64,000 nucleotides of DNA, taken from the NCBI GenBank assembly GCA_965232515.1, contig CBDDPY010000002.1, forward strand, positions 5,226,193 to 5,290,192, given 5' to 3'. The position numbers were made by a program, and so were the translations under genes. The notes beneath the pieces were generated by a model, which did not search any database, was not told the origin of the DNA, and worked only from the letters and a program-made list of their open reading frames with translations. The DNA comes from Alphaproteobacteria bacterium. Lineage in GTDB: Bacteria > Pseudomonadota > Alphaproteobacteria > GCA-2731375. Shown piece by piece: positions 21,272 to 57,092 of the stretch. The stretch's first letter is position 1. The number at the start of each line of letters is the position of its first letter.

Positions 21272-21292
21272 GGCGGATAGCGAGGAGAGATC

Positions 21293-22165: not shown

Positions 22166-22190
22166 GGATCCTGGCCTTCGCCAGGATGAC
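22166..22190. repeat. REP-like palindromic element, inverted orientation
   Basis: GGATCCTGGCcttcGCCAGGATGAC. Confidence 0.7.
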
Positions 22191-22216
22191 GATCGTTCAA
22201 TTTCCCATTCAAATAT

Positions 22217-22250: not shown

Positions 22251-22270
22251 GGGCCGACACGGAGAAACGC

Positions 22271-22732: not shown

Positions 22733-22761
22733 CGCCGCCGACCGCCGGGAGGGAGAAACCA

Positions 22762-33118: not shown

Positions 33119-34584
33119 CGCGCCTGTCGAACGCCACGCTGGGCCGGGTCCCCGACGGCATCGCGCGGCCGAATTACGACCGCGCCCTGCTCACGCCCGG
33201 CATCGTCCATATCGGCGTCGGCAACTTTCACCGGGCGCATCAGGCCTGGTACCTGCACCGCCTGATGCAGGCCGGGCAGGCGTTCGACTGGGCCATTGTC
33301 GGCGCCGGCGTGCGCGGCCAGGACGCGCGCATGCGCGAAAAGCTGCTGGCGCAGGACTGCCTTACGAACCTCATCGAACTCGAGCCCACCGGCAAATCCG
33401 CCGAGATCGTGGGGTCGATGATCGACTATCTGCCCATCGAGGACGGAAATGCACCCCTCATCGCGCGGATGGCGGATCCGGCGATCCGGATCGTCGCGCT
33501 GACCGTGACGGAAGGCGGCTACTACCTCAATCCCGCGACCAACTGTTTCGATGCGGATCACCCGGATATGCGCCACGACGCCGCAATCCCCGACACGCCG
33601 CGAACCGCGTTCGGCGCCATGGTTGCCGCGCTGAAGCTTCGGCGCGATCGGGGTGTCGGGCCGTTTACGGGACAGAGCTGCGACAATCTGTTGGGGAACG
33701 GCCGCGTCCTGCGCCAGACCGTCGTTTCGCTGGCGGGTCTGTCGGACCCGGATCTGGCCGACTGGATCGACGCAAACTGCAGCTTCCCCAACGCCATGGT
33801 CGATTGCATCGTGCCAGCGACGGGCTCGCAAGAGATCGCGCTCACCCGCGCGTTCGGCGTCGACGACCGCGCGCCCGTGACCCATGAGAGATTCCGCCAG
33901 TGGGTCATCGAGGATGACTTCTGCGCGGGCCGCCCGGATTGGGACCGCGTTGGCGCGACGTTTACCGACGATGTGCGCGCCTACGAAATGATGAAGCTCC
34001 GCATCCTCAACGCCGGACATCAGATCCTCGCCAATCCGGGCGAGATCCTCTCGATCGACACGATTGCGGGCTGCATGGCCCATCCATTGATCGCCGCATT
34101 CTTTCGAAAGGTTCTGACCGAAGAGATCGTGCCGCATGTCGAGGCAGTGCCCGGAATGACTCCACGGCAGTATGTCAACCTCATCGACCGCCGTTTCAGC
34201 AACGACGCCATCGTGGACACAACCCGGCGGGTCGCCTTCGACGGCGCGTCACGCCATGCCGGCTTTGTCCTTCCGATCGTTCGCGACGGATTGGCGTCGG
34301 ATACGCCGATAGCCGGGCTTGCGCTGGTCGAGGCCATGTGGGCGCGGATGTGCGAGGGCACGCGCGAAGACGGCGGCGCAATCGCGCCCAACGATCCGCT
34401 CTGGGACGATCTGATCGCGGCGGCGAAAGCGGCGCGGGATCGCCCGCGCGCCTGGCTCGAGCAACGGCCGTTCTATGGCGATCTGATCGACGCGCCGCGC
34501 TTCGCCGACGCATTCGGGCACTGGCTCGGCGTGATCTGGTCGCAGGGATGCGAAACCGCCCTGCGGGAATACATCGGCGAATAA
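33106..34584 (+). CDS. mtlK: mannitol 2-dehydrogenase (long-chain mannitol dehydrogenase family)
   Basis: The in-frame GTG at 33106 overlaps the smoS end. VHIGVGNFHRAHQAWY NAD motif. The upstream part of ORF 32803..34584 lies off-frame within smoS. Confidence 0.85.
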   Translation: MDELTRLSNATLGRVPDGIARPNYDRALLTPGIVHIGVGNFHRAHQAWYLHRLMQAGQAFDWAIVGAGVRGQDARMREKLLAQDCLTNLIELEPTGKSAEIVGSMIDYLPIEDGNAPLIARMADPAIRIVALTVTEGGYYLNPATNCFDADHPDMRHDAAIPDTPRTAFGAMVAALKLRRDRGVGPFTGQSCDNLLGNGRVLRQTVVSLAGLSDPDLADWIDANCSFPNAMVDCIVPATGSQEIALTRAFGVDDRAPVTHERFRQWVIEDDFCAGRPDWDRVGATFTDDVRAYEMMKLRILNAGHQILANPGEILSIDTIAGCMAHPLIAAFFRKVLTEEIVPHVEAVPGMTPRQYVNLIDRRFSNDAIVDTTRRVAFDGASRHAGFVLPIVRDGLASDTPIAGLALVEAMWARMCEGTREDGGAIAPNDPLWDDLIAAAKAARDRPRAWLEQRPFYGDLIDAPRFADAFGHWLGVIWSQGCETALREYIGE

Positions 34585-34587
34585 GCC

Positions 34588-35493
34588 TCAATCCGGGAAG
34601 TGGCGCTTGGCGTCTGCCTTGATGTGGTCGATCAGGACGCGCAGGCGTGGCGGCATCCGGCGGCGGTGCACGTAGGTGGCGGAGATCGTGCCCGGCCGGT
34701 GGTGCCAGTCCGGCAGGATGCGCACGAGGTCGCCATACTTTAATTCGTTCCGCACCGCGTAGTTCGGCAGCAGGCCGGCCGCCGCGCCCTCCAGCACGAA
34801 CTGCTTCGCCGTCAGGCCGGAATTGGTCCGGAAGGTCGAGTTCAGCCGCACGGTCAGGTGCTCGCTGTCGCCGCGGTCGAGCGTCAGCCGGTCGAAATCC
34901 GGAAAGATCGTCAGCGCCACCCAGGGCCGGTGCGCCAGATCGTAGGGCGAGCGCACGGCGCCGACGCGTGCGAGATAAGCGGGCGACGCGCAGGGGATCA
35001 TGGCGAAGTCGCAGATTTTCACCGCGTGCAGCTCGGTGTTCTTCAGCCAGCCGACGCGGAAGGCCAGATCGTAGCCGCCCTCGATCAGGTCCGTGATCGC
35101 GTCCTGCACGTCGAGCTCGACCGAGATCTTCGGATGCGCGGTATGAAACCGCGCGATGCTGCCGGTCAGATAATGCACCGCCAGATTTTGCGAGGCGGTG
35201 ATGCGGATCAGGCCAGACGGGCTCTCCTGCTGCGTTTCCAGCCGGTTCACCGCCGTCGACACCGTGTCCAGCATGGCGCTGCCGGCCTGGCACAGCTCGT
35301 CGCCCTCCTGCGTCACCGAGATCGACCGCGTCGACCGGTTCAGCAGCCGTACCTGAAGCTGCCGTTCCAGGTCCGAGACATGCTGGCTGACCACCGATTT
35401 GCTCAGGCCCAACGCCTCGGCGGCGCCGGTGAACGAGCCGGCCTCGACCACGCGCTGGAAGATGCCGATGCGGTAGAGAATCTTCAGGTCCAT
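34588..35493 (-). CDS. LysR-family transcriptional regulator, divergent from the iso-like cluster
   Basis: Internal ATG of ORF 34588..35571. FQRVVEAGSFTGAAEALGLSKSVVSQHV HTH. Confidence 0.9.
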   Translation of the reverse strand: MDLKILYRIGIFQRVVEAGSFTGAAEALGLSKSVVSQHVSDLERQLQVRLLNRSTRSISVTQEGDELCQAGSAMLDTVSTAVNRLETQQESPSGLIRITASQNLAVHYLTGSIARFHTAHPKISVELDVQDAITDLIEGGYDLAFRVGWLKNTELHAVKICDFAMIPCASPAYLARVGAVRSPYDLAHRPWVALTIFPDFDRLTLDRGDSEHLTVRLNSTFRTNSGLTAKQFVLEGAAAGLLPNYAVRNELKYGDLVRILPDWHHRPGTISATYVHRRRMPPRLRVLIDHIKADAKRHFPD

Positions 35494-35604
35494 TGTTCGA
35501 TTATACCGAACAATCCGTTTCGGCAATGGCCATAGCCGGGCCACGCGCCGCTCCCCTATCGTCTTGGGCAACGATGTTTATCGATTTCTGACGGAGTTCA
35601 GTCG

Positions 35605-36834
35605 ATGCCGGGACCGCTTGATGGCGTACGCATCATCGATCTGACGACCATGTTGTCGGGCCCCTGGGCCACCATGATCCTGGCCGACCAGGGCGCCGAT
35701 GTGATCAAGGTCGAGGTGCCAGGCGCCGGCGACCACGTGCGCTCGCTCGGCAATCAGAGCGCCGGCATGTCGGCCATGTTCCTCAACATCAACCGCAACA
35801 AGCGCTCGGTGACGCTGGACCTGAAATCGGACGCCGGCAAGGACCTGCTGCGGCGGCTGGCGAAGACGGCCGACGTGTTCGTGCAGAATTTCCGCCCCGG
35901 CGTCGTCGACCGACTCGGCATCGGCTACGACGACATCGCAGCCGTCAATCCGTCAATTCTGTATGTCTCGATCTCCGGCTTCGGCGAGGCCGGGCCCTAT
36001 GCCGGCAAGCCGGTCTACGACCCCGTGATCCAGGCGGTCTCCGGCCTGACCACCGTGCAGGCCGGCTCGGACGCGGAACGGCCGCGGCTGGTGCGCACGG
36101 TCCTGCCGGACAAGGTCTCGGCCATCACCGCCGCGCAGACCATCGCCTCGGGCCTGTTCGCGCGCGAGCGCACGGGCCAGGGCCAGCACGTCAAGCTGTC
36201 CATGCTCGACGCCGTGCTCGCCTTCCTGTGGGCGAGCGACTTCGGCGCGCAGACCTATCCCGAGCGCCCGACCACCAACCAGGCGGCCGCCAGCTTCATC
36301 GACCTGATCTACGAAACCAGCGACGGTTTCATGACCGTCGCGGTGATGAGCAACAAGGAGTGGGTGGCGCTGACCCGGGCGCTCGGCAGGCCGGAATGGC
36401 TGGAGGACGAACGGTTCGCGACGCCGTCGGCCCGCGACCGCCATGTCGACGAGCGGCTGCAGATGACGCAAGAGGTGCTGAAGACACGCACGACGGCAGA
36501 GTGGCTCGAACGTCTCGAGGCCGAGGGCGTGCCCTGCGCGCCGGCGCTGACTCGCAACGAGGTGATCGATTTTCCGCAGGTCGTCGCTGGCGACTCCATC
36601 GTCGAGTATCGGCATCATGCCGCCGGTCTGCTGCGCCAGGCGCGGCCGCCGGCGCGCTACCAGCAGACACCGGCCGAGATCCGCGTCGGCGCGCCGCTGC
36701 TGGGCGAGCACAATGAAGAGATCCTGTCCGAGATCGGTCTGTCGGAAGCCGAGATCGGGCAATTCAGGGCCAGCGGCGCGATCGGCGCCGAGCAGCAGGC
36801 CCGCGCCGCCGACATGTCCGCGGCGGACGACTAA
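35605..36834 (+). CDS. isoG: family III (CaiB/BaiF) CoA-transferase, IsoG-like
   Basis: 409 aa, IIDLTTMLSGPWATMILADQGADVIKVE. The symbol rests on position in a G-H-I-A-B-C-D-E-F arrangement. Confidence 0.65.
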   Translation: MPGPLDGVRIIDLTTMLSGPWATMILADQGADVIKVEVPGAGDHVRSLGNQSAGMSAMFLNINRNKRSVTLDLKSDAGKDLLRRLAKTADVFVQNFRPGVVDRLGIGYDDIAAVNPSILYVSISGFGEAGPYAGKPVYDPVIQAVSGLTTVQAGSDAERPRLVRTVLPDKVSAITAAQTIASGLFARERTGQGQHVKLSMLDAVLAFLWASDFGAQTYPERPTTNQAAASFIDLIYETSDGFMTVAVMSNKEWVALTRALGRPEWLEDERFATPSARDRHVDERLQMTQEVLKTRTTAEWLERLEAEGVPCAPALTRNEVIDFPQVVAGDSIVEYRHHAAGLLRQARPPARYQQTPAEIRVGAPLLGEHNEEILSEIGLSEAEIGQFRASGAIGAEQQARAADMSAADD

Positions 36835-36863
36835 GGCAAGCGCTCGGGGGGAGAGACGGACGC

Positions 36864-37544
36864 ATGGCAACCTATCTGATCGTCGGCAGCGACCGCGGCA
36901 TCGGCCTGGCCATCTGCGAGCAGTTGCACGCGCGCGGCGACGAAGTTATCGCCGCCTGTCTCGGCAACGGCGACGACCTGACCCGCCAGGGCATCCGGGT
37001 GATCCGGCAGATCGACGTGACGTCGGACGAGGCCGCCCAGCGGCTCGGAGAGACTCTGCGCGGCGACGACATAAGCCTCGACGTCGTCATTCACGTCGCA
37101 GGCGTGCTGGGGCTGGACGAGCTCGGCAACATCGATTTCGACGACGTCCGGCGGCAGATCGAGATCAACACCATCGGTCCGTTGCGCATCGCGCAGGCCG
37201 TCCTCGACCAGCTCGGCGAGGGCGCGAAGCTCGGCATCGTCACCAGCCGCGTCGGCTCGCTCGCCGACAACGGCAGCGGCGGCATGTACGCCTACCGGGT
37301 CTCGAAATGCGCTGCCAACATGGTCGGCCTCAACCTGCACCATGACCTGGCGAAGCGCGGCATCTCAGTGCTGCTGCTGCATCCCGGCATGGTCGCGACC
37401 GATCTGACCAAGGATCTGCCGGGGGACTTTGACTACATCCAGCCAACCGAAGCCGCGGCCGGCCTGATCCGCAACATGGACGAGCTGACGCCGGAGACGG
37501 CGGGCCGGTTCCGGCACGCGAACGGGGACTATCTGCCGTGGTGA
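36864..37544 (+). CDS. isoH: short-chain dehydrogenase, IsoH-like
   Basis: 226 aa, YLIVGSDRGIG (TGxxxGxG variant), YRVSKCA catalytic Y-x3-K. Confidence 0.6.
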   Translation: MATYLIVGSDRGIGLAICEQLHARGDEVIAACLGNGDDLTRQGIRVIRQIDVTSDEAAQRLGETLRGDDISLDVVIHVAGVLGLDELGNIDFDDVRRQIEINTIGPLRIAQAVLDQLGEGAKLGIVTSRVGSLADNGSGGMYAYRVSKCAANMVGLNLHHDLAKRGISVLLLHPGMVATDLTKDLPGDFDYIQPTEAAAGLIRNMDELTPETAGRFRHANGDYLPW

Positions 37545-37640
37545 GGTGCGGAACGTAAAGCCGTTTGATCCGCCAAGAAAACGCCCGGCCGGCAACGCAT
37601 TCGGTTATCGGGGTCGAAAAACGAAGGGGAGGACGATCAC

Positions 37641-38393
37641 ATGATGAAGGTCTATCAATACGTGCCAGGCTGGACCGTCGCCTGCATCAGTCCCTATGTC
37701 TCCAAGCTCGCGAACTATCTGCGCATGGTCGGACATCCGTTCGAGCTGGTACAGCAGGACCTGTCGCGCCTGCAGGAAGACGCGCCGCGCGGCAAGCTGC
37801 CGTTCATCATCGACGATGACGGCACCAAGGTGGCGGATTCCAACGAGATCATCGCCTATCACAAGGCGAAATACGGCGACAAACTCGACGCCGACCTGAC
37901 GCGGGAAGAAAAGGCCGTGGCCACGGCCTGGATGCGGCTGATCGACGAGCACCTCTACTGGTCCGGCGTCATTCAGCCGCGCTGGCGCATGGACGACGGC
38001 TGGGAAACCTATGTGCCGATCATCTGCGGCGGCGCCACCGAGATTCCGGCCGAGGTCCGCGAAGGCCTCGACGCCTTCCGCGTCCATATCCGCGACGAGT
38101 TCGTGCATCAGGGCATGGGCCTCAAGACCGACGAGGAAGTCCTCGAGACCTTCAAGGTCGATGTCGACGCCATGGAAGACTTCCTGCACCACAAGAGCTT
38201 CTTCATGGGTCCGAACCCGACCTCGATCGACGCGGCCGTGTTTTCGATCCTGACGCATATGATCGAAAGCCCGTTTGCCTGGCCGGGGCGCGATTACATC
38301 CGCGGCAAGCAGTCGTTCGTCGACTACATGGCGCGCATGCGAGAACGCTTCGATCTTGATTTCGGCATTGCGCCGGGGGCCGAAGCCGCCTGA
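37641..38393 (+). CDS. isoI: glutathione S-transferase (GST_N_4 / metaxin-like), IsoI-like
   Basis: 250 aa, VYQYVPGW...ISPYVSKL...GKLPFIIDDDGTKVADSNEII. Strong RBS AAGGGGAGG. Resembles my recollection of IsoI from isoprene degraders. Confidence 0.6.
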   Translation: MMKVYQYVPGWTVACISPYVSKLANYLRMVGHPFELVQQDLSRLQEDAPRGKLPFIIDDDGTKVADSNEIIAYHKAKYGDKLDADLTREEKAVATAWMRLIDEHLYWSGVIQPRWRMDDGWETYVPIICGGATEIPAEVREGLDAFRVHIRDEFVHQGMGLKTDEEVLETFKVDVDAMEDFLHHKSFFMGPNPTSIDAAVFSILTHMIESPFAWPGRDYIRGKQSFVDYMARMRERFDLDFGIAPGAEAA

Positions 38394-38518
38394 CGGCGGG
38401 CCATCGGCCATGCGCGGGCCGCAGCCCGCATCTCCACTTTTTGCCGCCGCACCGCACGTGCCGGCCGGCCCGCGCGCGGCCGGCCGCAGCGGGCGAGGTC
38501 ATCTCGAAAGGACCTGAT

Positions 38519-40015
38519 ATGGCATTGCTTAATCGCGACGACTGGTACGACATCGCCCGCGACGTCGACTGGACCTTCAGCTACGTCGACCGGGACGAGG
38601 CCTTCCCCGAGGAATGGGTCGGCGCCAAGGGCATTCCGCTCGAAGCCTGGGAGGATTGGGAGGAGCCGTTCCGGGTCTCCTACCGCGACTACGTCAAGGT
38701 CCAGCGCGAGAAGGAAACCGGCGTCGGCGCTATTCGCGACGCCATGATGCGGGCCAATCTCTACGCCCATCTCGATGCCGGCCACCAGGCTTCGTCGCAT
38801 CTGCACATGGGCACGACCTGCATGGTCGAGCAGATGGCCGTCACCATGCAGAGCCGCTTCTGCCGTTTCGCCCCGTCGCCGAAATGGCGCAGCCTCGGCG
38901 TGTTCGGCATGCTCGACGAGATCCGCCACGCCCAGCTCGACATGCGTTTCTCGCACGACCTGTTGAAGGACGAGCCGCGGTTCGACTGGTGTCAAAAGGC
39001 GTTCCACACCAACGAGTGGGGCGTGATCGCGGTCCGGAACTTCTTCGACGACGTCATGCTGAACGCCGACTGCATCGAGGCGGCGCTCGCCACCAGTCTC
39101 ACCGTCGAGCACGGCTTCACCAACATTCAGTTCGTGGCGCTGGCGTCGGACGCCATGGACGCCGGCGACATCAACTTCTCGAACCTGCTGTCCAGCATCC
39201 AGACCGACGAGGCGCGTCACGCCCAGGTCGGCTTCCCGACGCTCGACGTGATCATCAAGCACGATCCCGCCCGCGCGCAGCGGATCATCGACATCGCCTT
39301 CTGGCGCTCGGTCCGGCTGTTCCAGACGCTGACCGGCACGGCCATGGACTATTACACGCCGGTCGAGAAGCGGAAGATGTCGTTCAAGGAGTTCATGCTC
39401 GAGTGGATCGTCAAGCACCACGAACGCATCCTGCGCGACTACGGCCTGAAGCTGCCGTGGTACTGGGACAAGTTCCTGCTGGCCCTCGACCACGGCCACC
39501 ATGCGCTGCAGATCGGCACCTGGTTCTGGCGCCCGACGCTGTTCTGGAAGCCGAACGGCGGTATCTCCAAGGCCGAGCGCCGCTGGCTGAATGAGAAGTA
39601 CCCGTCCTGGGAAGACAGCTGGGGCGTGCTCTGGGACGAGATCATCAAGAACATCCGCGCCGGCCGAATGGAAAAGACCCTGCCGGAGACGCTGCCGGCA
39701 CTCTGCAACCTGACGCAGTTGCCGCTCGGTTCGGCTATCGACCGGCATCACCTGGCCAAACACCAGGTCGAGTACCAGGGCCGCGTCTATCACTTCGATT
39801 CCGACGTCTCGCGCTGGATCTTCGAACTCGAGCCTGATCGCTATGCCGGCCACATGAACGTCGTCGACCGCTTTATCGCCGGTCAGATCCAGCCGATGAA
39901 CCTGGAAGGCGGCCTCAACTGGATGGGCCTGACGCCCGATGTGATGGGCGATGACGCCCACGACTATCGCTGGGCTCTGGACGAGGCCGAGCAGCCGTTG
40001 CAGGCGGCCGAATGA
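38519..40015 (+). CDS. isoA: soluble diiron monooxygenase alpha (oxygenase large) subunit, IsoA/TmoA/XamoA type
   Basis: Internal ATG of ORF 38441..40015. Two diiron motifs are present, MLDEIRHAQ and QTDEARHAQ (E...ExxH twice). Confidence 0.85.
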   Translation: MALLNRDDWYDIARDVDWTFSYVDRDEAFPEEWVGAKGIPLEAWEDWEEPFRVSYRDYVKVQREKETGVGAIRDAMMRANLYAHLDAGHQASSHLHMGTTCMVEQMAVTMQSRFCRFAPSPKWRSLGVFGMLDEIRHAQLDMRFSHDLLKDEPRFDWCQKAFHTNEWGVIAVRNFFDDVMLNADCIEAALATSLTVEHGFTNIQFVALASDAMDAGDINFSNLLSSIQTDEARHAQVGFPTLDVIIKHDPARAQRIIDIAFWRSVRLFQTLTGTAMDYYTPVEKRKMSFKEFMLEWIVKHHERILRDYGLKLPWYWDKFLLALDHGHHALQIGTWFWRPTLFWKPNGGISKAERRWLNEKYPSWEDSWGVLWDEIIKNIRAGRMEKTLPETLPALCNLTQLPLGSAIDRHHLAKHQVEYQGRVYHFDSDVSRWIFELEPDRYAGHMNVVDRFIAGQIQPMNLEGGLNWMGLTPDVMGDDAHDYRWALDEAEQPLQAAE

Positions 40016-40034
40016 ACCGGACAGGGAGGATGTA

Positions 40035-40301
40035 ATGGCCTTGTTTCCCATTATCGGCCGCTTCGACGGCGACTTCGTGCCGCACCTGGTGGCGGTCGAC
40101 ACCGAGGACTCGATGGATCAGATCGCCGAGAAGGTGGCGGTCCATAGCGTCGGCCGCCGCATGCCGGTCAACCCTGACGCCAGCGGCTACGAAGTGCTGC
40201 TGGACGACCGGGTGCTGGACGGCGGCCAGACGCTCGAGGCGCTGATGGGCGAGACGCCTGTGCCGCCGCTGCAATGGTTCGACGTCAGGTGGAAGACGTG
40301 A
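40035..40301 (+). CDS. isoB: monooxygenase gamma subunit (TmoB/IsoB-like)
   Basis: 88 aa after GGGAGGA, at the second position of the six-gene set. Confidence 0.7.
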   Translation: MALFPIIGRFDGDFVPHLVAVDTEDSMDQIAEKVAVHSVGRRMPVNPDASGYEVLLDDRVLDGGQTLEALMGETPVPPLQWFDVRWKT

Positions 40302-40651
40302 CGGACGCCGCTACGGTCGTTCCAATCAGCGACGTCACATACGTCGAGATCTGCGCCGAGGACGAGCTGTGGGATGGCGAGATGGACGCCTTCGATGTCG
40401 GCGAGCACGAGGTGCTGCTGATCCGTCTCGACGGCCGCTATCACGCCTACGACGGCATCTGCCCGCATCAGAGCGTGTCGCTGGTCGACGGTGAGCTGAC
40501 CGAAGCCGGCGTGCTGATCTGCAGCGCCCACCAATGGCAGTTCGACGCCGCCTCCGGCAACGGGGTCAATCCGGCGACGGCCTGCCTGAAGCGCTTTCCC
40601 GTGAAAGTCGAGGACGGCCGCGTGTTCGTCGGCGATCAGCCGTTGGGCTGA
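40298..40651 (+). CDS. isoC: Rieske-type [2Fe-2S] ferredoxin (TmoC/IsoC-like)
   Basis: CPHQ...CSAHQWQF Rieske motifs. The GTG at 40298 (GTGA overlap, AGGTGGA RBS) is preferred over the ATG at 40274. Confidence 0.85.
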   Translation: MTDAATVVPISDVTYVEICAEDELWDGEMDAFDVGEHEVLLIRLDGRYHAYDGICPHQSVSLVDGELTEAGVLICSAHQWQFDAASGNGVNPATACLKRFPVKVEDGRVFVGDQPLG

Positions 40652-40680
40652 CGCCGCGGACCGCGAAAAGGGAGAACGAC

Positions 40681-40992
40681 ATGAACGAAACAGCCGATGC
40701 CGCTGAGGGTATGAACGAAGACTTGGTCGGCCCGGTGATCCGCGCCGGCGATCTGGCCGAGGCCGTGATCGACGCCGTGGCCGAGGACAACCCGCACAGC
40801 GAGGTGACCGTCGTGGACCGCGGCGACTACGTGCGCATCCACACCGAGCGCGAATGCCGGCTGACAAAATCGTCGCTGGAAAAGCATCTCGGCCGGGACT
40901 TCGATCTCGCGCTCCTGGAAGCGGAGATGCCGTCCTTCAAGGGCCGCATGCGCTCCAAATGGGACGAGATGGTCTGGTTCTACAGCAACTGA
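40681..40992 (+). CDS. isoD: MmoB/DmpM-family effector (coupling) protein (TmoD/IsoD-like)
   Basis: 103 aa after AAGGGAGA. Size and position match the effector protein. Confidence 0.75.
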   Translation: MNETADAAEGMNEDLVGPVIRAGDLAEAVIDAVAEDNPHSEVTVVDRGDYVRIHTERECRLTKSSLEKHLGRDFDLALLEAEMPSFKGRMRSKWDEMVWFYSN

Positions 40993-41025
40993 CGCGGCCG
41001 TTGACCGGCCCGAGGAGAGGAAGAC

Positions 41026-42051
41026 ATGGCACAGCCAGCCGGCAACCGGCGCGAACGGCGCCGCAAGACCTGGAGCGCGCTGGGCGATCTCGGCCGCAAG
41101 CCGACGGAATACGAGATCGTCACGCACGGCATGAACCATACCGGCGGCGAGACGCCGCTGGAGATGGGCCCCGACGTCCACGGCAATGCCTGGCTGAAGA
41201 AGTATCGCGACGACATCGCGCTGAAGGTCGGCAACTGGGACGAATTCCGCGATCCCGACCAGCTCACCTACGGCAAATACGTCCGCCTGCAGGACGAGCA
41301 GGAGGCCTATATCGACAACCTGCTCGAGGAGTACACCGAGCGCAAGCCGTCGGACGAAAAGCTGTCGAGCACGGCGCTGGCGTTTCTCGGTTCATGCCTC
41401 ACGCCCGGCCGCTATCTGGTGCACGGCCAGCAGATGATGTCGGCCTATATTCAGCAGATCGCGGCTTCGAGCTACGTCGCCAACGGCGCCTCGTTCCAGG
41501 CCGCCGATCAGCTGCGCCGGGTGCAGCGCATCGCCTACCGCACCAAGCAGCTCGATCTCGCGCATCCGACCCACGGCTTCGGCAGCAGCGAGCGCGGGAT
41601 CTGGGAGAACGAGCCGCTCTGGCAGCCCATGCGCCAGGCGGTCGAACGGTTGCTCGTCACCTTCGCCTGGGACGAGGCGCTGATCGCCACCAATCTCGTG
41701 GTAAAGCCGATCTGCGACGACATCTTCCTGCGGCAGTTTGCCCGGGTCGCCTGGTCGCTCGACGACGGCCTCGACGCGCTGATCGCCGACAACCTCTATC
41801 GCGATGCCGAGCGGCACCAGCGCTTTATCGTCGCCGCCTGCCAGCACGCTATCGCCGCCGACCGGGCGAATCGCGACGTGATCTGGGGCCATGTCGAGGC
41901 CTGGCAGGAGACTGGCGAGGCCATCATCGTATCCGGCGCCAAGCTGATCACGCAGCACGCTGACGGCATGGTCGCGGGCGAGATCGAGGCCGAATTGCGA
42001 AGCGCTTGGCAGCAGCTGCTACGGGACGCCGGCCTGACCCACGATGCCTGA
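41026..42051 (+). CDS. isoE: soluble diiron monooxygenase beta subunit (TmoE/IsoE-like)
   Basis: 341 aa, helical ferritin-like protein lacking the full diiron ligand set. RBS GAGGAGAGG. Confidence 0.8.
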   Translation: MAQPAGNRRERRRKTWSALGDLGRKPTEYEIVTHGMNHTGGETPLEMGPDVHGNAWLKKYRDDIALKVGNWDEFRDPDQLTYGKYVRLQDEQEAYIDNLLEEYTERKPSDEKLSSTALAFLGSCLTPGRYLVHGQQMMSAYIQQIAASSYVANGASFQAADQLRRVQRIAYRTKQLDLAHPTHGFGSSERGIWENEPLWQPMRQAVERLLVTFAWDEALIATNLVVKPICDDIFLRQFARVAWSLDDGLDALIADNLYRDAERHQRFIVAACQHAIAADRANRDVIWGHVEAWQETGEAIIVSGAKLITQHADGMVAGEIEAELRSAWQQLLRDAGLTHDA

Positions 42052-43075
42052 CGGCGGCGCCGGGGCACGGTCGTATCGGATCACGCTGTCGGGCAGCGGC
42101 GCGACGTTCGATTGTCGGTCCGACGAGACGTTGCTGCGGGCCGGTCTCGCCGCCGGTCTGGCCATGCCGTATGAATGCGCCAGCGGCGCCTGCGGTTCCT
42201 GCAAGGCGCGGCTGGTCGACGGCGAGGTGAACATGCGCTGGCCGGACGCCCCCGGCCTGTCGGCGCGCGACCGGGCGAAGGGCAACCGTATCCTCTGCTG
42301 TCAGTCCCTGCCGACCGAGGACTGCACCATCAACGTGCGGGCCGAGGCCGGCAGTCCGGAACCGGCGCCCCGTCCGATATCGGCCGAGGTCGCGGAGATC
42401 GCCGACCTCTGCGACGGCGTGCGCCGGATCGTGCTGACCACCGCGACGCCGATTGATTTCCTTGCCGGTCAGTTCGTGCTGCTACGCCTGCCGGGCGACG
42501 GCGGCTACCGCGCCTATTCCATGGCCAACGCGCCGGCGGGCACGACAGACCTGATTCTCCTGATCAAGGCCAAGCCGGGCGGCCAGGCAACGGCGCATTT
42601 GTTCGATCGCATGGCCGTTGGCGACGGCGTCGATCTCGAGGGTCCCTATGGGCGGGGCTATTTGCGCGAGGACAGCGACCGGCCGCTGATCGCCGTTGCC
42701 GGCGGTTCGGGGTTGGCGCCGATGCTGTCGATCGTGCGCCGCGCGGTCGGTCTGTGGCCGGACAGGCCGGTGCATCTCTATTTCGGCGCCGACACGCGGG
42801 CGGCGCTGTTCTGCCTCGACGAAATCGCCGCACTGGCGGCGCTGTTTCCCCGCTTCCGTCCGACGCTGGCGTTGCGCGATGGCCGGCCGGACGCCGGTTC
42901 GCTGCCTGTCGAGACCGGCCTGGTCGGCGACGTCATGTTGCGCGGCGAACCCGACCCGCAGGGAGCGGACCTCTATCTCGCCGGGCCCGGCGGCATGGTC
43001 GATGCCGTGCTGGCCCAGACCGTCCGCGCCAACGCCATCCCCGCCGACCGCGTGTTCTTCGATCGCTTCGTTTGA
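42044..43075 (+). CDS. isoF: NADH:ferredoxin oxidoreductase with plant-type [2Fe-2S] domain (TmoF/IsoF-like)
   Basis: CASGACGSCK...C ferredoxin motif, RAYSMAN (RxYS FAD motif), GGSGLAP (NAD motif). 8-nt overlap with isoE. Confidence 0.85.
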   Translation: MPDGGAGARSYRITLSGSGATFDCRSDETLLRAGLAAGLAMPYECASGACGSCKARLVDGEVNMRWPDAPGLSARDRAKGNRILCCQSLPTEDCTINVRAEAGSPEPAPRPISAEVAEIADLCDGVRRIVLTTATPIDFLAGQFVLLRLPGDGGYRAYSMANAPAGTTDLILLIKAKPGGQATAHLFDRMAVGDGVDLEGPYGRGYLREDSDRPLIAVAGGSGLAPMLSIVRRAVGLWPDRPVHLYFGADTRAALFCLDEIAALAALFPRFRPTLALRDGRPDAGSLPVETGLVGDVMLRGEPDPQGADLYLAGPGGMVDAVLAQTVRANAIPADRVFFDRFV

Positions 43076-43085
43076 GCAAACCGCC

Positions 43086-44231
43086 GTGACCCACGATCCG
43101 GATCGCTTCGAGCGCAACTTCATCGGCGGCCATTGGGTCTTCACCCGCGAGGGCTACGACTTCGACATCTACGATCCGTCCAACAGCCGGGTCATCGGAA
43201 CCGTGCCGCTGTCGTCGCGCTTCGACGTCGCCCGCGCCGTCGCCGCGGCCGAGGCGGCGCTGCCGGACTGGTCGGGACGCGCGGCCGCCGACCGCGCCGC
43301 CATCGTCTTCCGCGCCATATCGCTGATGGAGGCGGATCTCGACGCCATCGCCGCGCTCGAAGCCCGCGACACCGGCCTGCCGGTCATCCAGGCTCGCGCC
43401 GAGATCGCGGCCGCGCTGGCCCGGGCCGGCACGACGCGGCAAGCCGCGTCGCGGCCCGCCGGCGTGGTCGGCCAGATTCTGTCCTGGAGTGGCCCGTTCG
43501 CGCATGCCTGCCGCACGCTGCTGCCGGCGCTCGCCGATGGCGACGCGGTCGTCGTCAAACCGTCGCTGCGGGCGCCCCTGTCGCTCGTCCGGTTCGCCGA
43601 AAGCCTGCAGGCGACCGGCCTCCCGGCCGGCGTTCTCAATCTGGTGCAGGGCACGGGCATCGACGTGGGCGCCGCGCTCGCCGCGCATGCCGGCCTGTCC
43701 GAGCTCGGTTTCCAGGGCTCGCGCCAGACCGGCAGGAGCGTCACGCGCGCCGCGGCAAACAACGACACACCCTTGCAGTCCGCCTTCCGCCACCCTGTCC
43801 GGACAATCGTGCAGGCCGACACCGACCTCGATGCGACGATCGGTGACATCGCCGACAGAACTCTGGGCCACGCCGCGCGTGCCGGCTATGGCGGCCAGAT
43901 CGTCCAGATCGCGCCATCCCGCATTGATGACCTGATGACCGGGCTAACAGGGATCTTCGATGCCGTGCGCTACGACACCGCGTCGCAAGGATCGGGCTCG
44001 ATCGCGCCCATGATCGCCGAGACCTACCGCGACGCGCGGCGGGCGCTGTTGGACGAATTCCGCGAGGCGGGCGTCGAAACGCTACATACCGGCCCGGAAC
44101 CGTCGGCCCGGATCGCGCGCATGGGCTGGTTCGTGCCGCCGGTGATCCTGCGCGACGACGCGCAAACCATCGACATCGACGGCGATCAGCCTCTTGGGCC
44201 CACCGTGATCCTACGAGTGCTCGCCGGTTAG
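43086..44231 (+). CDS. aldehyde-dehydrogenase-like protein that is short and appears to lack the catalytic residues
   Basis: The GTG at 43086 is the only plausible start. ALDH landmarks are recognisable (NFIGGHWV, VVVKPS, GLPAGVLNLVQG, FQGS, QADTDLD, LGPTV). In my by-eye alignment the ELGG Glu, the GQxC Cys and the PWN Asn positions read SAFRH, GQIV and SWS. Confidence 0.6.
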   Translation: MTHDPDRFERNFIGGHWVFTREGYDFDIYDPSNSRVIGTVPLSSRFDVARAVAAAEAALPDWSGRAAADRAAIVFRAISLMEADLDAIAALEARDTGLPVIQARAEIAAALARAGTTRQAASRPAGVVGQILSWSGPFAHACRTLLPALADGDAVVVKPSLRAPLSLVRFAESLQATGLPAGVLNLVQGTGIDVGAALAAHAGLSELGFQGSRQTGRSVTRAAANNDTPLQSAFRHPVRTIVQADTDLDATIGDIADRTLGHAARAGYGGQIVQIAPSRIDDLMTGLTGIFDAVRYDTASQGSGSIAPMIAETYRDARRALLDEFREAGVETLHTGPEPSARIARMGWFVPPVILRDDAQTIDIDGDQPLGPTVILRVLAG

Positions 44232-45895
44232 TTCCGGCTTTCCAGCAGGCGGCGGGCGATGACCTGGGCCTGGATCTCGCCGGCGCCCTCGAAGATGTTG
44301 AGGATGCGGGCGTCGCAGAGCACGCGGCTGATCGGGTATTCCAGCGCGAAGCCGTTGCCGCCGTGGATCTGCAGCGCGTTGTCGGCCGACGACCAGGCGA
44401 CCCGCGCGGCCAGCAGCTTGGCCATGCCGGCCTCCAGATCGCAGCGTCGGTCCTGATCCTTCTCGCGGGCCGAGAAATAGACGAGTTGGCGCGCCATCAT
44501 GGTCTCGACCGCCATCCAGGCGAGCTTGCCGTGCACGCGCGGGAACTCGAAGATGGCGCCGCCGAACTGCTGCCGCTCGTTGGCGTAGGCGAGCCCTAAA
44601 TCGATGGCGCTCTGAGCAACGCCGACGGCGCGCGCCGCGGTCTGGATGCGGGCCGACTCGAAGGTCGCCATCAGCTGCTTGAAGCCGTGGCCCTCCTGGC
44701 CGCCCAGCAAGTTTTCGGCTTTCACTTCGAATCCGTCGAAGCCGAGCTCGTATTCCTTCATGCCGCGATAGCCCAGCACCTCGATCTCGCCGCCCGTCAT
44801 GCCGGCGGCCGGGAACGGCTCGGCGTCGGTGCCGCGCGGCTTCTCGGCCAGGAACATCGACAGGCCGCGATAGCCGGCCTCGTCCGGATCGGTCCGGGCC
44901 AGCAACGTCATCAGGTCGGCGCGCGCCGCGTGCGTGATCCAGGTCTTGTTGCCGGTGACCTTGTAGACCTCGCCGTCGCGCACCGCGCGCGTGCGCAGGC
45001 TGGCGAGATCCGAGCCGGTATTGGGCTCGGTGAACACTGCCGTCGGCAGGATCTCGCCGCTGGCGATCTTCGGCAGCCATTTTTGCTTCTGTTCCTCGGT
45101 GCCGCCGCACATGATCAGCTCGGCGGCGATCTCCGAGCGGGTGCCCAGCGAGCCGACGCCGATATAGCCGCGGCAGAGCTCCTCCGAGACCACGCACATC
45201 GCCATCTTGCCCATGCCGTGGCCGCCATAAGCTTCCGGGATCGTCAGGCCGAACACGCCGAGTTCATTCATCCGCTCGATCACGTCCATGGGGATCAGCT
45301 TGTCGCCCAGGTGCCAGTCGTGCGCGTCGGGGGTGACGTGGTCGACGGTGAAGCGGCGGAACTGGTCGCGCACCATGACCATGGTGTCGTCGAGGCCGTC
45401 CTCGCCGAAATGGCCGTCGCGGATCAACTCGCCGATGCGGCCGCGGACCGCCGCCGTGTTGCCGTTGCGGATCAGCTCGGCCACCGCCTCGGTCCAGAAG
45501 GCGTGGATCTCGTCGTCGCTCAGGCCCAGGTCGGCCGGACGCACGACCTCGACCTGGCTCATCGCGATGCCGCCGGCCATCTCGGCCAGATAGCCTCCGA
45601 AGCCGGCCCGCAGCATCAGGCTCTCCAGCTCGCCGAACCGGCCCTCAGCCTGCAGGCGCTCGGCCCAGGCCAGCGACTGACGCAGCGCTTCGAGATAGGT
45701 CGCGTACCAGGCGAAGCCGTGTACGGCGAACTGCTGCTGGTTGATCAGGCCCGCGTCGATCCGGCCGTCGCGGCCGACCAGCGTGCGCAGCCGCTGGCGC
45801 GCAGCCTCGACCAGCCGCTCGGCCGCGTTCAGCACCTCGCGATAGGTGGCGGGAATGTCGTGCGCGTGCGTGTCCGAGGCCGGTTGGAGCGACAT
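44228..45895 (-). CDS. acyl-CoA dehydrogenase family protein (long form with an extra N-terminal domain)
   Basis: 555 aa, FTEPNTGSDL, KTWITHA, QIHGGNGFALEYPISR. Confidence 0.9.
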   Translation of the reverse strand: MSLQPASDTHAHDIPATYREVLNAAERLVEAARQRLRTLVGRDGRIDAGLINQQQFAVHGFAWYATYLEALRQSLAWAERLQAEGRFGELESLMLRAGFGGYLAEMAGGIAMSQVEVVRPADLGLSDDEIHAFWTEAVAELIRNGNTAAVRGRIGELIRDGHFGEDGLDDTMVMVRDQFRRFTVDHVTPDAHDWHLGDKLIPMDVIERMNELGVFGLTIPEAYGGHGMGKMAMCVVSEELCRGYIGVGSLGTRSEIAAELIMCGGTEEQKQKWLPKIASGEILPTAVFTEPNTGSDLASLRTRAVRDGEVYKVTGNKTWITHAARADLMTLLARTDPDEAGYRGLSMFLAEKPRGTDAEPFPAAGMTGGEIEVLGYRGMKEYELGFDGFEVKAENLLGGQEGHGFKQLMATFESARIQTAARAVGVAQSAIDLGLAYANERQQFGGAIFEFPRVHGKLAWMAVETMMARQLVYFSAREKDQDRRCDLEAGMAKLLAARVAWSSADNALQIHGGNGFALEYPISRVLCDARILNIFEGAGEIQAQVIARRLLESRN

Positions 45896-46832: not shown

Positions 46833-46865
46833 CTTCGAGACGGGTCCTTCGGACCCTCCTCAGGA
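46833..46865. repeat. left half of a long REP-like compound palindrome interrupted by the IS
   Basis: cttcgagacgggtccttcggaccctcctcagga matches the left arm of the copy at 23997. Confidence 0.6.
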
Positions 46866-48044: not shown

Positions 48045-48116
48045 GCATGAGGTAAGGCATTGATGTCAAACCCAAACCTCATCCTGAGGAACGCCCGTCA
48101 GGGCGTGTCTCGAAGG
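48045..48116. repeat. right half of the interrupted REP-like compound palindrome
   Basis: gcatgaggtaagg...cctcatcctgaggaacgcccgtcagggcgtgtctcgaagg. Confidence 0.6.
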
Positions 48117-53802: not shown

Positions 53803-54363
53803 TCAGATCCGTTCCGACAGCCAGATGGCGAGCCGCGTGCCGGCCTTGATGCCGCGGCTCAGCACCGGGTAGGCGGGCGCCTGCTCGGCGTCGTGTTCGA
53901 GTGCCGTTTTCCGGTGCTCTTCTTCTTCCGCGCCGAAGGACTCAATGGTTTTTTTCAGCGCCGGCTCGTCGTCGCCGAGTGCGTCCGCCTGTTTCTTGTA
54001 GTGCTCGACGATCACCTCTTCGACCGCCTCCGTGCAGGCCATGGCGGCCTTCTCGCCGATCAGCGCCGTGCCCGCGCCCAGCATGAACCCGGCCGCGCGC
54101 CACAGCGGTGTCAGCGCCGTCGGCCGCACCCGCCGCTCCACCAGCAGGCGGTTGAACTCGGCCAGGTGCACGTCCTCGGCCGCGGCCATTTCGGCCACCA
54201 CCGGCTCGGATTTCGTGCCGGCCAGGACGGCCAGCTGTCCTTTGTAGATCTGCACCGCGCCGAACTCGCCGGCCTGGTCGACGCGGATGATGCGTTCGAT
54301 CAGCGCCCGGTCCGACGGGTCGCCGGGCAGGCGTTTGCGGGGCGCGCGCTTTTTCGCCGTCAT
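53803..54363 (-). CDS. coq7: demethoxyubiquinone hydroxylase (Coq7 family)
   Basis: Internal ATG of ORF 53803..55014. RVDQAGEFGAVQIY, diiron motifs EDVHL and EEEHR. Confidence 0.85.
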   Translation of the reverse strand: MTAKKRAPRKRLPGDPSDRALIERIIRVDQAGEFGAVQIYKGQLAVLAGTKSEPVVAEMAAAEDVHLAEFNRLLVERRVRPTALTPLWRAAGFMLGAGTALIGEKAAMACTEAVEEVIVEHYKKQADALGDDEPALKKTIESFGAEEEEHRKTALEHDAEQAPAYPVLSRGIKAGTRLAIWLSERI

Positions 54364-57005: not shown

Positions 57006-57092
57006 GCGGGCGTGGCGGAATTGGTAGACGCGACGGCCTCAAAAGCCGTTCTTCGAAAGAAGGTGTCGGTTCGACTCCGACCGCCCGCACCA
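57006..57092 (+). tRNA. tRNA-Leu(CAA), intact, class II with long variable arm
   Basis: Acceptor GCGGGCG/CGCCCGC, anticodon stem ACGGC/GCCGT with loop CTCAAAA, T arm GTCGG-TTCGACT-CCGAC, encoded CCA. Possible promoter TTGGCC-17-TATGTA at 56968-56996. Confidence 0.9.

Follow-up and report, generated by a model that had tools for sequence, protein, structure and literature searches.

The locus described here is best read against two characterised systems, the isoprene cluster of Variovorax WS11 and the propene-oxidising monooxygenase (XAMO) of Xanthobacter Py2, whose alpha subunits belong to one clade; in Py2 that clade serves propene, and the epoxide is processed by a coenzyme M (CoM) route. 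Canonical isoprene clusters carry isoJ and aldH1 (about 2.2 kb) between isoI and isoA, the IsoJ proteins being YfcG/YghU-like, glutathione-dependent disulfide-bond oxidoreductases. Deletion of isoJ or aldH in WS11 abolishes growth on isoprene, although co-oxidation persists (PMC9804861). Both oxidations that follow ring opening are catalysed by IsoH, and AldH merely accelerates them (PMC10057887). Isoprene itself is emitted by marine algae and coral symbionts (PMC6874547).

The locus lies on a chromosome of an uncultured marine alphaproteobacterium, in a 64-kb stretch of DNA that was analysed as a whole (the window). Whereas isoJ and aldH1 are both essential in the model isoprene degrader WS11, both are absent from this operon, and an intact, selected operon has been kept despite the loss of two such genes. 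We believe that it is a functional, LysR-controlled operon that probably serves the oxidation of small alkenes, most plausibly isoprene, with the epoxide processed via glutathione.

Gene content and integrity of the cluster

The sequence-only reading had described ten genes behind a divergent LysR regulator, and the ORF list places them there, all on the forward strand with LysR on the reverse (35605-44231; Table 1). Its gene families (CoA-transferase, SDR, GST, four-component soluble diiron monooxygenase (SDIMO) and an ALDH-like protein) were matched by Pfam and NCBIfam, and the iso-type layout it recognised, with isoGHI directly upstream of an SDIMO in tmo order and LysR divergent, was recovered as well. 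Genes are separated by gaps of 10-125 bp or overlap slightly throughout the operon, and each of the ten ORFs is full length and retains its catalytic motifs, the exception being the catalytic Glu and Cys of the ALDH-like protein. Logan contigs from runs X1 and X2 cover positions 34000-44318 without a single difference or gap, and the isoI-isoA junction without an insert is also spanned by contigs of X3 and X5, which come from related strains. The junction is thus crossed by independent contigs, which rules out an assembly artefact.

Table 1. Features of the cluster, in window coordinates
Feature	Position	Strand	Basis
LysR-type transcriptional regulator, 301 aa counted from the MDLKIL start	34588-35493	-	Pfam HTH_1 + LysR_substrate
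Candidate LysR binding site, inverted repeat TTGTTCG-N7-CGAACAA	35494-35514	.	Abuts lysR start; read from sequence
isoG, family III CoA-transferase, 409 aa	35605-36834	+	Pfam CoA_transf_3, E 1e-113, full length
isoH, SDR, 1-hydroxy-2-glutathionyl-2-methyl-3-butene dehydrogenase type, 226 aa	36864-37544	+	Pfam adh_short; NCBIfam NF049951
isoI, glutathione S-transferase of isoprene-epoxide type, 250 aa	37641-38393	+	Pfam GST_N_4/GST_C_6; NCBIfam NF049950
isoI-isoA spacer, 125 bp	38394-38518	+	Sequence
isoA/xamoA-type oxygenase alpha subunit, 498 aa	38519-40015	+	Pfam Phenol_Hydrox + YHS
isoB, gamma subunit, TmoB family, 88 aa	40035-40301	+	Pfam TmoB, E 8e-25
isoC, Rieske ferredoxin, 125 aa; alternative GTG start 40289	40274-40651	+	Pfam Rieske
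isoD, effector/coupling protein, 103 aa	40681-40992	+	Pfam MmoB_DmpM, E 4e-26
isoE, oxygenase beta subunit, 341 aa	41026-42051	+	Pfam Phenol_Hydrox, E 2e-59
isoF, NADH:ferredoxin reductase, 343 aa	42044-43075	+	Pfam Fer2 + FAD_binding_6 + NAD_binding_1
aldH2/Xaut_4863-type ALDH-like protein, 381 aa	43086-44231	+	Pfam Aldedh, positions 7-373 of 461 only

A monooxygenase of the IsoA/XamoA clade

The alpha subunit is 76.6% identical to Py2 XamoA and 77% to WS11 IsoA. Alpha subunits of aromatic monooxygenases are at most 53% identical to it, and the IsoA/XamoA clade spans 63-97%, a clean gap, and alpha trees split the two groups at 100%. By identity and by tree, then, the alpha subunit clusters with IsoA/XamoA; a place among the aromatic enzymes, named beforehand as what would count against an isoprene-type locus, is not what it takes. 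Within its group it joins XamoA and alphaproteobacterial MAGs at 99% bootstrap (the alphaproteobacterial XamoA subclade), and by tree the propene enzyme of Py2 is its nearest characterised relative. In subunits B, C, D and F the module also resembles Py2 XAMO (57-72% identity) more than it does Variovorax IsoMO (47-55%); IsoB, for example, is 72% identical to Py2 XamoB versus 51% to WS11 IsoB, and IsoF is 57% identical to Py2 XamoF. The diiron ligands (E..EXXH..E..EXXH) are invariant in alignment A1, the IsoC translation shows the Rieske motifs CPH...CSAH, [2Fe-2S] motifs are intact in the cluster proteins, and IsoE is equal in length to its counterparts in the related loci L010 and L008.

Accessory enzymes and the missing isoJ and aldH1

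IsoI scores 350 bits against the IsoI equivalog model NF049950 (cut-off 300), which upholds the earlier assignment of this GST to the IsoI type; it shares 56-57% identity with Rhodococcus IsoI and 76% with the IsoI of L090, a metagenomic contig with a complete cluster. IsoH reaches 371 bits against the equivalog NF049951 (cut-off 350) over its full length (1-226), with intact SDR motifs including YxxxK (YRVSK), and IsoG shares 76% identity with L090 IsoG and 71% with that of WS11. Close kin of this IsoH/IsoI lineage are also found without any monooxygenase (L003, L004, L005 and L092), so the lineage is not tied to isoprene.

The sequence-only reading had also noted that isoJ is missing, with 125 bp between a single GST gene and isoA; the spacer length is exact, the cluster holds no second GST, and the spacer occupies the position of isoJ and aldH1 in canonical clusters. 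No isoJ or aldH remnant was detected in it by tblastn at E 1e-2, and neither isoJ nor a full-length aldH1 occurs anywhere in the 64-kb window, nor do gor/garB or gshAB. The sole other GST gene in the window (21293-22072) is SspA/MaiA-like, of a different class and 27% identical to IsoJ.

The gene trailing isoF had been called aldH-like. It belongs to the ALDH family by its Pfam match, but it is a different gene from the aldH that iso clusters carry: in alignments with active AldH1 and PDB 4ywe, ELGG is replaced by SAFR and GQxC by ARAG, and the protein lacks the catalytic Glu and Cys together with about 90 C-terminal residues. A role as an aldehyde dehydrogenase is therefore rejected. Being of the aldH2/Xaut_4863 type, the gene leaves the operon without the essential aldH1 as well. 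It groups at 90% bootstrap with other ALDH-like genes downstream of monooxygenase genes (20 in the clade, directly after isoF or, in clusters that lack isoF, after isoE); both catalytic residues are absent in 20/20 members and kept in all upstream AldH1 genes. Py2 carries the same trailing dead ALDH (Xaut_4863, 43% identical, compared with 77% for L010), and the protein probably acts as a partner to the monooxygenase without catalysis of its own.

Origin of the reduced layout and selection

The reduced layout is derived, having arisen by deletion of isoJ-aldH1 from a complete LysR | isoGHIJ-aldH-isoABCDEF-aldH2 cluster, since L090, which carries the full canonical set with isoJ-aldH between isoI and isoA, is sister to the window and L010 for every marker: IsoBCDEF (93%), IsoI (82%) and IsoG (95%, neighbour joining, with betaproteobacterial IsoG joining next at 99%). 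The MAG GCA_028281075.1 has the same layout, as do several marine and coral runs. Elsewhere among the relatives there have been independent losses of isoJ or aldH1: L007 has a fragmented isoJ pseudogene beside an intact aldH1, and L011 has isoJ and no aldH1 within 21 kb.

The reduced operon is under purifying selection. Compared with an equally reduced relative, a pair in which both lineages already lack isoJ-aldH1, dN/dS is 0.085-0.35 across all ten genes at dS 0.22-0.46 (isoG 0.11, isoH 0.17, isoI 0.085, isoA-F 0.10-0.24 with isoF at 0.24, ALDH-like 0.35).

Proposed pathway and alternatives

Isoprene itself is a plausible substrate, and the chemistry we infer by homology. Consider a cell in which IsoABCDEF oxidises the alkene to its epoxide: IsoI would open the ring with glutathione, IsoH would take the hydroxy-conjugate to the acid in two NAD+ steps, and IsoG would convert the acid to its CoA thioester. 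The helper step of AldH1 may be dispensable, IsoH performing both oxidations, or may be supplied from elsewhere in the genome. With isoJ deleted, the reductive removal of glutathione, normally the task of this YfcG-like Nu-class GST, would have to come from an unlinked GST elsewhere in the genome. Selection on isoG counts for a functional pathway, since the gene would serve no purpose if no step came after it.

The same enzymes might instead act on another small alkene (propene, butenes, 1,3-butadiene or isobutene), as an XAMO-type system in which glutathione replaces coenzyme M. The kinship with Py2 speaks for this, in the alpha subunit, in B, C, D and F and in the shared dead ALDH, as does a clade that includes Mycobacterium ELW1, an isobutylene degrader whose alpha subunit is 72% identical and is not accompanied by isoGHIJ. 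Group 1 SDIMOs moreover accept propene, isoprene and isobutene, the last supporting growth, and their names are unreliable for function (PMC11825192). On the other hand, IsoH and IsoI exceed cut-offs derived from isoprene-pathway enzymes, the sister L090 and the subclade member L008 hold the full isoGHIJ-aldH set, as in proven isoprene degraders, the CoM-pathway gene xecA was not found in the window, and isoprene is a known volatile of the marine and coral habitats that yielded this sequence; we regard this alternative as possible, if rather doubtful. We think it unlikely that the operon serves co-metabolism or detoxification only, epoxides that are encountered or made by fortuitous alkene oxidation being conjugated with glutathione, the conjugate being excreted or stored and growth on isoprene failing because isoJ and aldH1, both absent from the 64 kb, are gone. 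WS11 isoJ and aldH mutants do behave in this way, consuming isoprene when given pyruvate (PMC9804861), and isoGHI or isoHI modules without a monooxygenase in other Alphaproteobacteria fit general epoxide detoxification. Against this, a six-gene monooxygenase that consumes NADH and makes a toxin is costly and yet constrained, as is isoG, whose product channels the acid into CoA-linked catabolism. Alphaproteobacteria tend to have several GST genes, so supply from elsewhere would be easy.

Decay after the isoJ-aldH1 deletion, with the remaining genes becoming pseudogenes, might be suspected from the loss of two genes that the model degrader cannot do without, from an IS5 element 2.6 kb downstream, and from erosion in relatives, where isoF is lost in L007 and L011, the L007 isoJ is broken and L003 retains isoH-isoI only. 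Ten full-length ORFs, low dN/dS accrued between two lineages already lacking both genes, and recurrence of the intact reduced layout across several environmental samples make it very improbable. Hardly credible is an aromatic (toluene, benzene or phenol) monooxygenase that neighbours GST, SDR and CoA-transferase genes by chance: the tmoABCDEF order and the frequent public annotation of homologues as 'toluene monooxygenase' invite it, and Py2 XAMO also hydroxylates benzene, toluene and phenol, but the alpha identity gap and trees and the specific IsoH and IsoI equivalogs disfavour it, and no catechol or ring-cleavage genes were found flanking the cluster.

Regulation and noncoding elements

The glutathione-dependent operon that we favour would be controlled by its LysR, which is 58-64% identical to the regulators beside the iso clusters L090, L007, L008 and L011 and 43% to that adjoining isoG in WS11. 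No promoter-like site was found at the cluster, and expression is seen as low-depth RNA-library contigs only, from related strains. The isoI-isoA spacer holds a GC-rich palindrome (38460-38487) and an AAGGA ribosome-binding site, both kept in the L010 alignment; the fold is no more stable than that of shuffled sequences (z = -0.75). The candidate LysR dyad sits within the 111-bp lysR-isoG intergenic region, and comparable dyads are found at the corresponding place in L004 (TCGTATG-N7-CATACGA) and L005 (GTTTG-N7-CAAAC).

Layout and gene content of the cluster

The region 34588-44231 holds one minus-strand LysR gene and ten plus-strand genes, arranged with intergenic gaps of 10-125 bp and two small overlaps, and the Pfam assignments of the ten products are listed below together with the selection estimates discussed later. 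The six genes isoABCDEF follow the alpha-gamma-ferredoxin-effector-beta-reductase order of a four-component soluble diiron monooxygenase (SDIMO). In NCBIfam, the SDR exceeds the trusted cut-off of the IsoH equivalog NF049951 (371 versus 350 bits) and the GST that of the IsoI equivalog NF049950 (350 versus 300 bits), which points to enzymes of these two types. The CoA-transferase matches CoA_transf_3 and, in a neighbour-joining (NJ) tree, falls in a 99% clade with betaproteobacterial IsoG and with the IsoG of L090, a JGI metagenome contig that carries a complete cluster. The sequence-only reading is supported and sharpened: with isoGHI directly before isoABCDEF, the locus is a member of the iso/xamo family of alkene-oxidation loci, in reduced form.

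Plus-strand genes of the cluster, in order, with dN/dS between the window and the corresponding locus (L010) of MAG GCA_028281075.1
Order	Gene	Product by Pfam	dN/dS
1	isoG	Family III CoA-transferase	0.11 (partial)
2	isoH	SDR	0.17
3	isoI	GST (GST_N_4/GST_C_6)	0.085
4	isoA	Diiron hydroxylase alpha subunit + YHS domain	0.10
5	isoB	TmoB	0.14
6	isoC	Rieske ferredoxin	0.18
7	isoD	MmoB/DmpM effector	0.11
8	isoE	Hydroxylase beta subunit	0.16
9	isoF	Fer2-FAD-NAD reductase	0.24
10	ALDH-like	ALDH-family protein	0.35

As first described, 125 bp separate the isoI stop (38393) from the isoA start (38519). Independent Logan assemblies of two runs match 34000-44318 with zero differences, and related-strain contigs in two other runs cross the isoI-isoA junction without an insert. 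The layout is therefore real, and not an artefact of assembly.

Relationships of the monooxygenase

The diiron ligands of the alpha subunit (E..EXXH..E..EXXH) are invariant across a 40-sequence alignment. The protein is 76.6% identical to XamoA of Xanthobacter Py2, 77% to IsoA of Variovorax WS11 and 72% to the "isoA" product of Mycobacterium ELW1, and at most 53% identical to toluene/benzene-type enzymes, with the range from 63% to 53% empty among the database matches. In an NJ tree with 100 bootstraps, the IsoA/XamoA group stands apart from the aromatic enzymes with 100% support, and the window sequence lies within it, grouped at 99% with Py2 XamoA and a number of alphaproteobacterial sequences from MAGs and metagenomes; the clustering with aromatic monooxygenases that would have spoken against the first assignment is not seen. 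The alphaproteobacterial clade has 100% support in a concatenated IsoBCDEF tree, and the gamma, ferredoxin, effector and reductase subunits are 57-72% identical to those of Py2, versus 47-55% to those of Variovorax.

By tree, the nearest characterised monooxygenase is Py2 XamoABCDEF with Xaut_4863, encoded on plasmid pXAUT01 (99-100% clade; identities of 76.6% for alpha, 72% gamma, 63% ferredoxin, 68% effector, 53% beta and 57% reductase). Py2 likewise has a short (387 aa) ALDH-like gene after the reductase gene, with the catalytic residues gone. In contrast to the window, Py2 lacks isoGHI and handles its epoxide by the coenzyme M pathway (xecA and other genes about 2 kb downstream); no xecA homologue was found in the window by tblastn with Py2 XecA at E 1e-8. 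The TmoABCDEF/TbuA1 type shares the six-gene order, the Pfam families and the diiron ligands, but its alpha subunit is at most 53% identical, it forms a separate clade, and it has no associated glutathione module.

Absence of isoJ and aldH1

The order isoG-H-I-J-aldH-isoABCDEF, or the visible part of it on cut contigs, is present in 12 genome-survey loci (Variovorax WS11, Ramlibacter WS9, Rhodococcus WS4, Gordonia OPL2, Kineosporia sp. and seven MAGs), and isoGHIJ and aldH are said to "nearly always" adjoin isoABCDEF (PMC10057887). The proposal that isoJ is missing between isoI and isoA is borne out by the 125-bp spacer and by the 64-kb window, where tblastn with four IsoJ proteins (E 1e-2) found no isoJ. 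The same search with three AldH1 proteins (E 1e-2) found no competent aldH1 in the window, where the sole ALDH-family gene is the one after isoF, 25-27% identical to AldH1. With no isoJ and only an aldH2-type ALDH, the type that trails isoF, the locus is without both genes, and within the window the cluster fails two defining features of iso loci.

Besides isoI, the only GST gene in the window is the ORF at 21293-22072. As a displaced isoJ it was rejected: its product is 26-28% identical to IsoJ and its best models are SspA, FzlA and MaiA, whereas IsoJ proteins match the YfcG/YghU models of glutathione-dependent disulfide-bond oxidoreductases.

Measured against the canonical iso clusters of Variovorax sp. 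WS11, Ramlibacter WS9 and Rhodococcus sp. AD45, which include the isoJ and aldH1 absent here, the window cluster shares the divergent LysR gene (as in WS11) and the isoG-isoH-isoI order directly upstream of isoABCDEF. Identity to WS11 is 77% for IsoA, 71% for IsoG, 66% for IsoH and 49% for IsoI, the last being 56-57% identical to Rhodococcus IsoI. Unlike in the canonical clusters, no garB/gor gene adjoins the cluster, and a dead ALDH of the aldH2 type is present in the window and in AD45 but absent in WS11.

The glutathione module also occurs in other settings. In Gordonia rubripertincta CWB2 epoxidation is carried out by a flavin styrene monooxygenase rather than an SDIMO, and StyJ and AldH1 are present; no flavin monooxygenase occurs in the annotated flanks of the window cluster, where the monooxygenase is by Pfam a diiron SDIMO. 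By description, the styGHIJ and aldH1 genes of CWB2 share the epoxide logic of GST, then SDR, then CoA-transferase (PMC8552685). Stand-alone LysR-isoGHI(J-aldH) modules of marine and other Alphaproteobacteria (L003, L004, L005 and L092) share the divergent LysR gene and the isoG-isoH-isoI order, and their IsoI proteins, the nearest relatives of the window IsoI, belong to the same lineage as it (64-86% identity, 74% bootstrap clade); none of these four modules has a monooxygenase gene within 10 kb in either direction. The modules vary in content: those of Pelagibius (L005/L006) also hold isoJ and aldH, and L003 holds only isoH-isoI. Annotated fungal proteins of Zasmidium cellare and Cyphellophora europaea, IsoI-like GSTs, are unexpectedly close to the window IsoI, at 51-55% identity.

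The trailing ALDH-like gene

The last gene of the cluster had been called ALDH-like and likened to the aldH of iso clusters. The family membership stands; the role does not, as the catalytic Glu and Cys are both gone. Its match to the Pfam model PF00171 is confined to positions 7-373 of 461, and in alignments with active AldH1 proteins and a residue-by-residue comparison with the solved ALDH 4ywe, the general-base Glu of ELGG and the nucleophile Cys of GQxC are replaced (…LQSAFRHP… and …HAARAGYGG…), the catalytic columns holding Gly for Cys and Ala/Ser for Glu. The nucleotide-binding motifs KPS and GSxxxG are kept.

Among 43 ALDH-family genes of the fetched loci, those lying just 3' of the monooxygenase genes, after isoF or after isoE where isoF is absent, form one clade (90% bootstrap) that takes in Py2 Xaut_4863 and the genes of Rhodococcus WS4, Gordonia OPL2 and ELW1. 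Both catalytic residues are absent in every clade member with both columns covered (20 of 20), and they are kept in every upstream AldH1 and other true ALDH with these columns covered. The branching inside the clade parallels the IsoA tree. Five of the clade loci (L007, L011, L018, L030 and L032) lack isoF, the dead ALDH-like gene following isoE directly.

The window gene is the "aldh2" of Rhodococcus AD45, where aldh2 is strongly induced by isoprene and its role is unexplained (PMC4676930, PMC7143210); we found no statement in the literature consulted that it is catalytically dead. Since genes of this type accompany the monooxygenase under the glutathione route, under the coenzyme M route (Py2) or under neither (ELW1), we infer that the role of the protein is non-catalytic and bound up with the monooxygenase as such. 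Such a tie would give a previously unexplained isoprene-induced gene of AD45 a concrete, testable role.

Origin of the reduced layout

An uncultured relative of the window cluster is L010, a 9-kb contig of "Alphaproteobacteria bacterium PL25a_bin.159" (GCA_028281075.1), which has the identical isoG-H-I-ABCDEF-aldH2-like layout at 88-92% nucleotide identity (IsoA 94%). This MAG also has the same acyl-CoA dehydrogenase gene after the cluster. The first trees suggested a mosaic, with IsoH and IsoI from stand-alone modules, IsoG of betaproteobacterial type and IsoA of XAMO type. The mosaic was rejected in favour of simple deletion because, once L090 was added, every marker placed it as sister to the window. 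L090 is a 14-kb contig with the full order LysR / isoGHIJ-aldH-isoABCDEF-aldH2-like; it is 84% (IsoA), 76% (IsoG) and 76% (IsoI) identical to the window, and it is sister to the window plus L010 with 93% support for IsoBCDEF, 82% for IsoI and 95% for IsoG. It differs in having isoJ and aldH1 between isoI and isoA and a longer trailing ALDH-like gene (429 aa). In the simplest history, the reduced cluster would derive from a complete one of this kind that lost a segment of about 2.2 kb holding isoJ and aldH1; the 125-bp isoI-isoA spacer holds no isoJ or aldH1 remnant detectable by tblastn at E 1e-2.

Other members of the subclade depart from the canonical order in their own ways. L007 has an intact aldH1 beside an isoJ broken into out-of-frame fragments, L011 keeps isoJ in inverted orientation and has no aldH1 within 21 kb, and L008 keeps both genes, relocated beside isoG. 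The losses in L007 and L011 were independent.

All ORFs of the cluster are full length. Between the window and L010, both of which already lack isoJ-aldH1 (dS 0.22-0.46), dN/dS lies at 0.085-0.35; selection has therefore maintained the reduced operon ever since isoJ-aldH1 was lost.

Regulatory sites and the isoI-isoA spacer

The perfect dyad TTGTTCG-N7-CGAACAA in the lysR-isoG intergenic region is a candidate LysR site, and comparable dyads occur at the same position in the stand-alone modules L004 and L005. A consensus scan of 34.4-46.4 kb found no sigma-70-like promoter, and terminator-like sites there are at chance level, both scans being uninformative at 65% G+C. A regulatory RNA or terminator in the isoI-isoA spacer was considered and rejected: the spacer folds no better than shuffled sequences (z = -0.75), and no T-run follows the GC-only palindrome found there.

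Host, habitat and expression

The window also encodes ribonucleotide reductase (RNR), lysA, argH, ETF and cobalamin adenosyltransferase, and an operon for a polyol ABC transporter and mannitol dehydrogenase lies directly upstream of the cluster. Given these housekeeping genes, the locus appears to be chromosomal, in contrast to the plasmid-borne clusters of AD45, WS11 and Py2; that of WS11 lies on a megaplasmid, whereas that of the window sits among lysA, argH, RNR and ETF. No described plasmid carries the cluster: in a megablast of the plasmid collection, the sole match was Py2, at 75% across the monooxygenase genes.

For ArgH, a single metagenome protein matches at 96% identity and everything else at 78% or less, the best named matches (about 70%) being Caenispirillum, Telmatospirillum and Rhodospirillales MAGs. 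Runs labelled as marine, coral and marine-sediment metagenomes, and as a few coded organisms, hold near-identical sequence. Marine microalgae, coral symbionts included, are reported isoprene producers (PMC6874547), and isoprene is an ecologically sensible substrate, short of proof. RNA-library contigs from related strains cover the cluster, one across isoG-isoH-isoI and another across isoF and the ALDH-like gene, at about the same depth as its flanks; at this low depth, and with DNA possibly included, they are a weak sign of expression.

Discussion

Isoprene emissions are of similar size to those of methane, and isoA and the 11-gene iso cluster serve to trace the bacterial sink. In the comparative literature consulted, all genome-characterised isoprene degraders have isoGHIJ and aldH, and Sphingopyxis is the only Alphaproteobacterium with a sequenced iso cluster. 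Here, an uncultured marine alphaproteobacterial lineage keeps a reduced, apparently chromosomal version under purifying selection, one without isoJ and aldH1, both of which have been shown to be essential in the model organism.

Overall, we believe it somewhat probable that the locus specifies a functional route that epoxidises an alkene and processes the epoxide with glutathione, the missing steps being supplied from other parts of the genome and glutathione being removed by something other than IsoJ. The retention of isoG argues in this direction: a step after the CoA thioester would still exist, and some other enzyme would then remove glutathione. Housekeeping YfcG/YghU-like GSTs are common in Proteobacteria, and some cleave alpha-glutathionyl carbonyl compounds. 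The loss of aldH1 is biochemically tolerable in principle, because IsoH alone does both conjugate oxidations and AldH merely accelerates them (PMC10057887).

Whether isoprene is the physiological substrate of this pathway is a nearly even call, which we would tip slightly against. One main rival is another small alkene as substrate. The alpha-subunit clade spans enzymes working with the glutathione route (isoprene degraders), the coenzyme M route (Py2, propene) and neither (ELW1), so placement in it does not fix the substrate, and a 2025 review finds SDIMO names and relatedness poor predictors of function (PMC11825192); on the side of isoprene stand the isoGHI genes and the marine, coral-linked occurrence. 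The other main rival is a co-metabolic, detoxification-only role. In Variovorax WS11, isoG, isoJ and aldH are each required for growth on isoprene, and the mutants, given pyruvate, still consume it (PMC9804861); to be weighed with this are the retained isoG and the later step that it would serve. If the lineage does not grow on isoprene, the locus would be a natural case of co-metabolic oxidation; if it does, the glutathione-removing enzyme of the accepted pathway would need re-examination, and gene-based surveys should relax their requirement for the full set.

More tentative, and in our view unlikely, is a pair of linked readings in which isoGHI plus isoABCDEF is a minimal set sufficient for growth on isoprene and aldH2 is an accessory subunit of the monooxygenase. 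The hosts would be marine, coral- or alga-associated Alphaproteobacteria, in which housekeeping Nu-class GSTs and IsoH would stand in for IsoJ and AldH1. The aldH2/Xaut_4863-type protein would serve XAMO/IsoMO as a reductase partner, assembly factor or stabilising factor, the dead ALDH having evolved alongside the monooxygenase in Alpha- and Gammaproteobacteria and in Actinobacteria, and persisting whichever epoxide route lies downstream. If this were true, the 11-gene iso cluster regarded as "essential" would have exceptions, and searches that insist on all of its genes would underestimate marine isoprene sinks.

Flanking features

Coordinates of sites, flanking features and the L007 remnant (window positions unless L007 is named)
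Feature	Position	Strand	Remarks
Perfect dyad TTGTTCG-N7-CGAACAA	35494-35514		Opens the 111-bp lysR-isoG intergenic region
28-nt GC-only palindrome GCCGGCCGGCCCGCGCGCGGCCGGCCGC	38460-38487		isoI-isoA spacer; conserved in L010
Acyl-CoA dehydrogenase, 555 aa	44228-45895	-	N-terminal extension of ~165 residues
IS5-family insertion sequence	46858-48052		26-bp terminal inverted repeats, 92% complementary; 2.6 kb downstream of cluster
DDE_Tnp_1/DUF772 transposase of the IS5-family element	46936-47904
tRNA-Leu(CAA)	57006-57092		Lower G+C after it (0.54-0.60 versus ~0.65), in the stretch to 64000
PAPS-reductase-like (DndC-like) protein	57194-58327
AAA_23 (DndD-like) protein	58564-60630
DndE-HerA fusion	60643-62175
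Methyltransferase	62184-63245	-
isoJ remnant of L007	5244-5737 of L007		Between isoG and aldH1; four fragments in different frames

The acyl-CoA dehydrogenase gene is convergent with the ALDH-like gene, with a 4-bp overlap, and this neighbourhood is kept in L010 (92% nucleotide identity, dN/dS 0.085). The segment 57006-64000 resembles a defence island of the DNA-phosphorothioation type, inserted at the tRNA-Leu(CAA). A tRNA-Val(GAC) at 54068-54149, on the minus strand, is called by ARAGORN and is not reported by the Rfam tRNA model at its gathering score. A cupin gene, the GST gene considered as isoJ and a cytochrome P450 gene (22384-23970) lie co-directionally at 20876-23970, 14 kb upstream of the iso locus, and form a small gene group of their own, oxidative or detoxifying.
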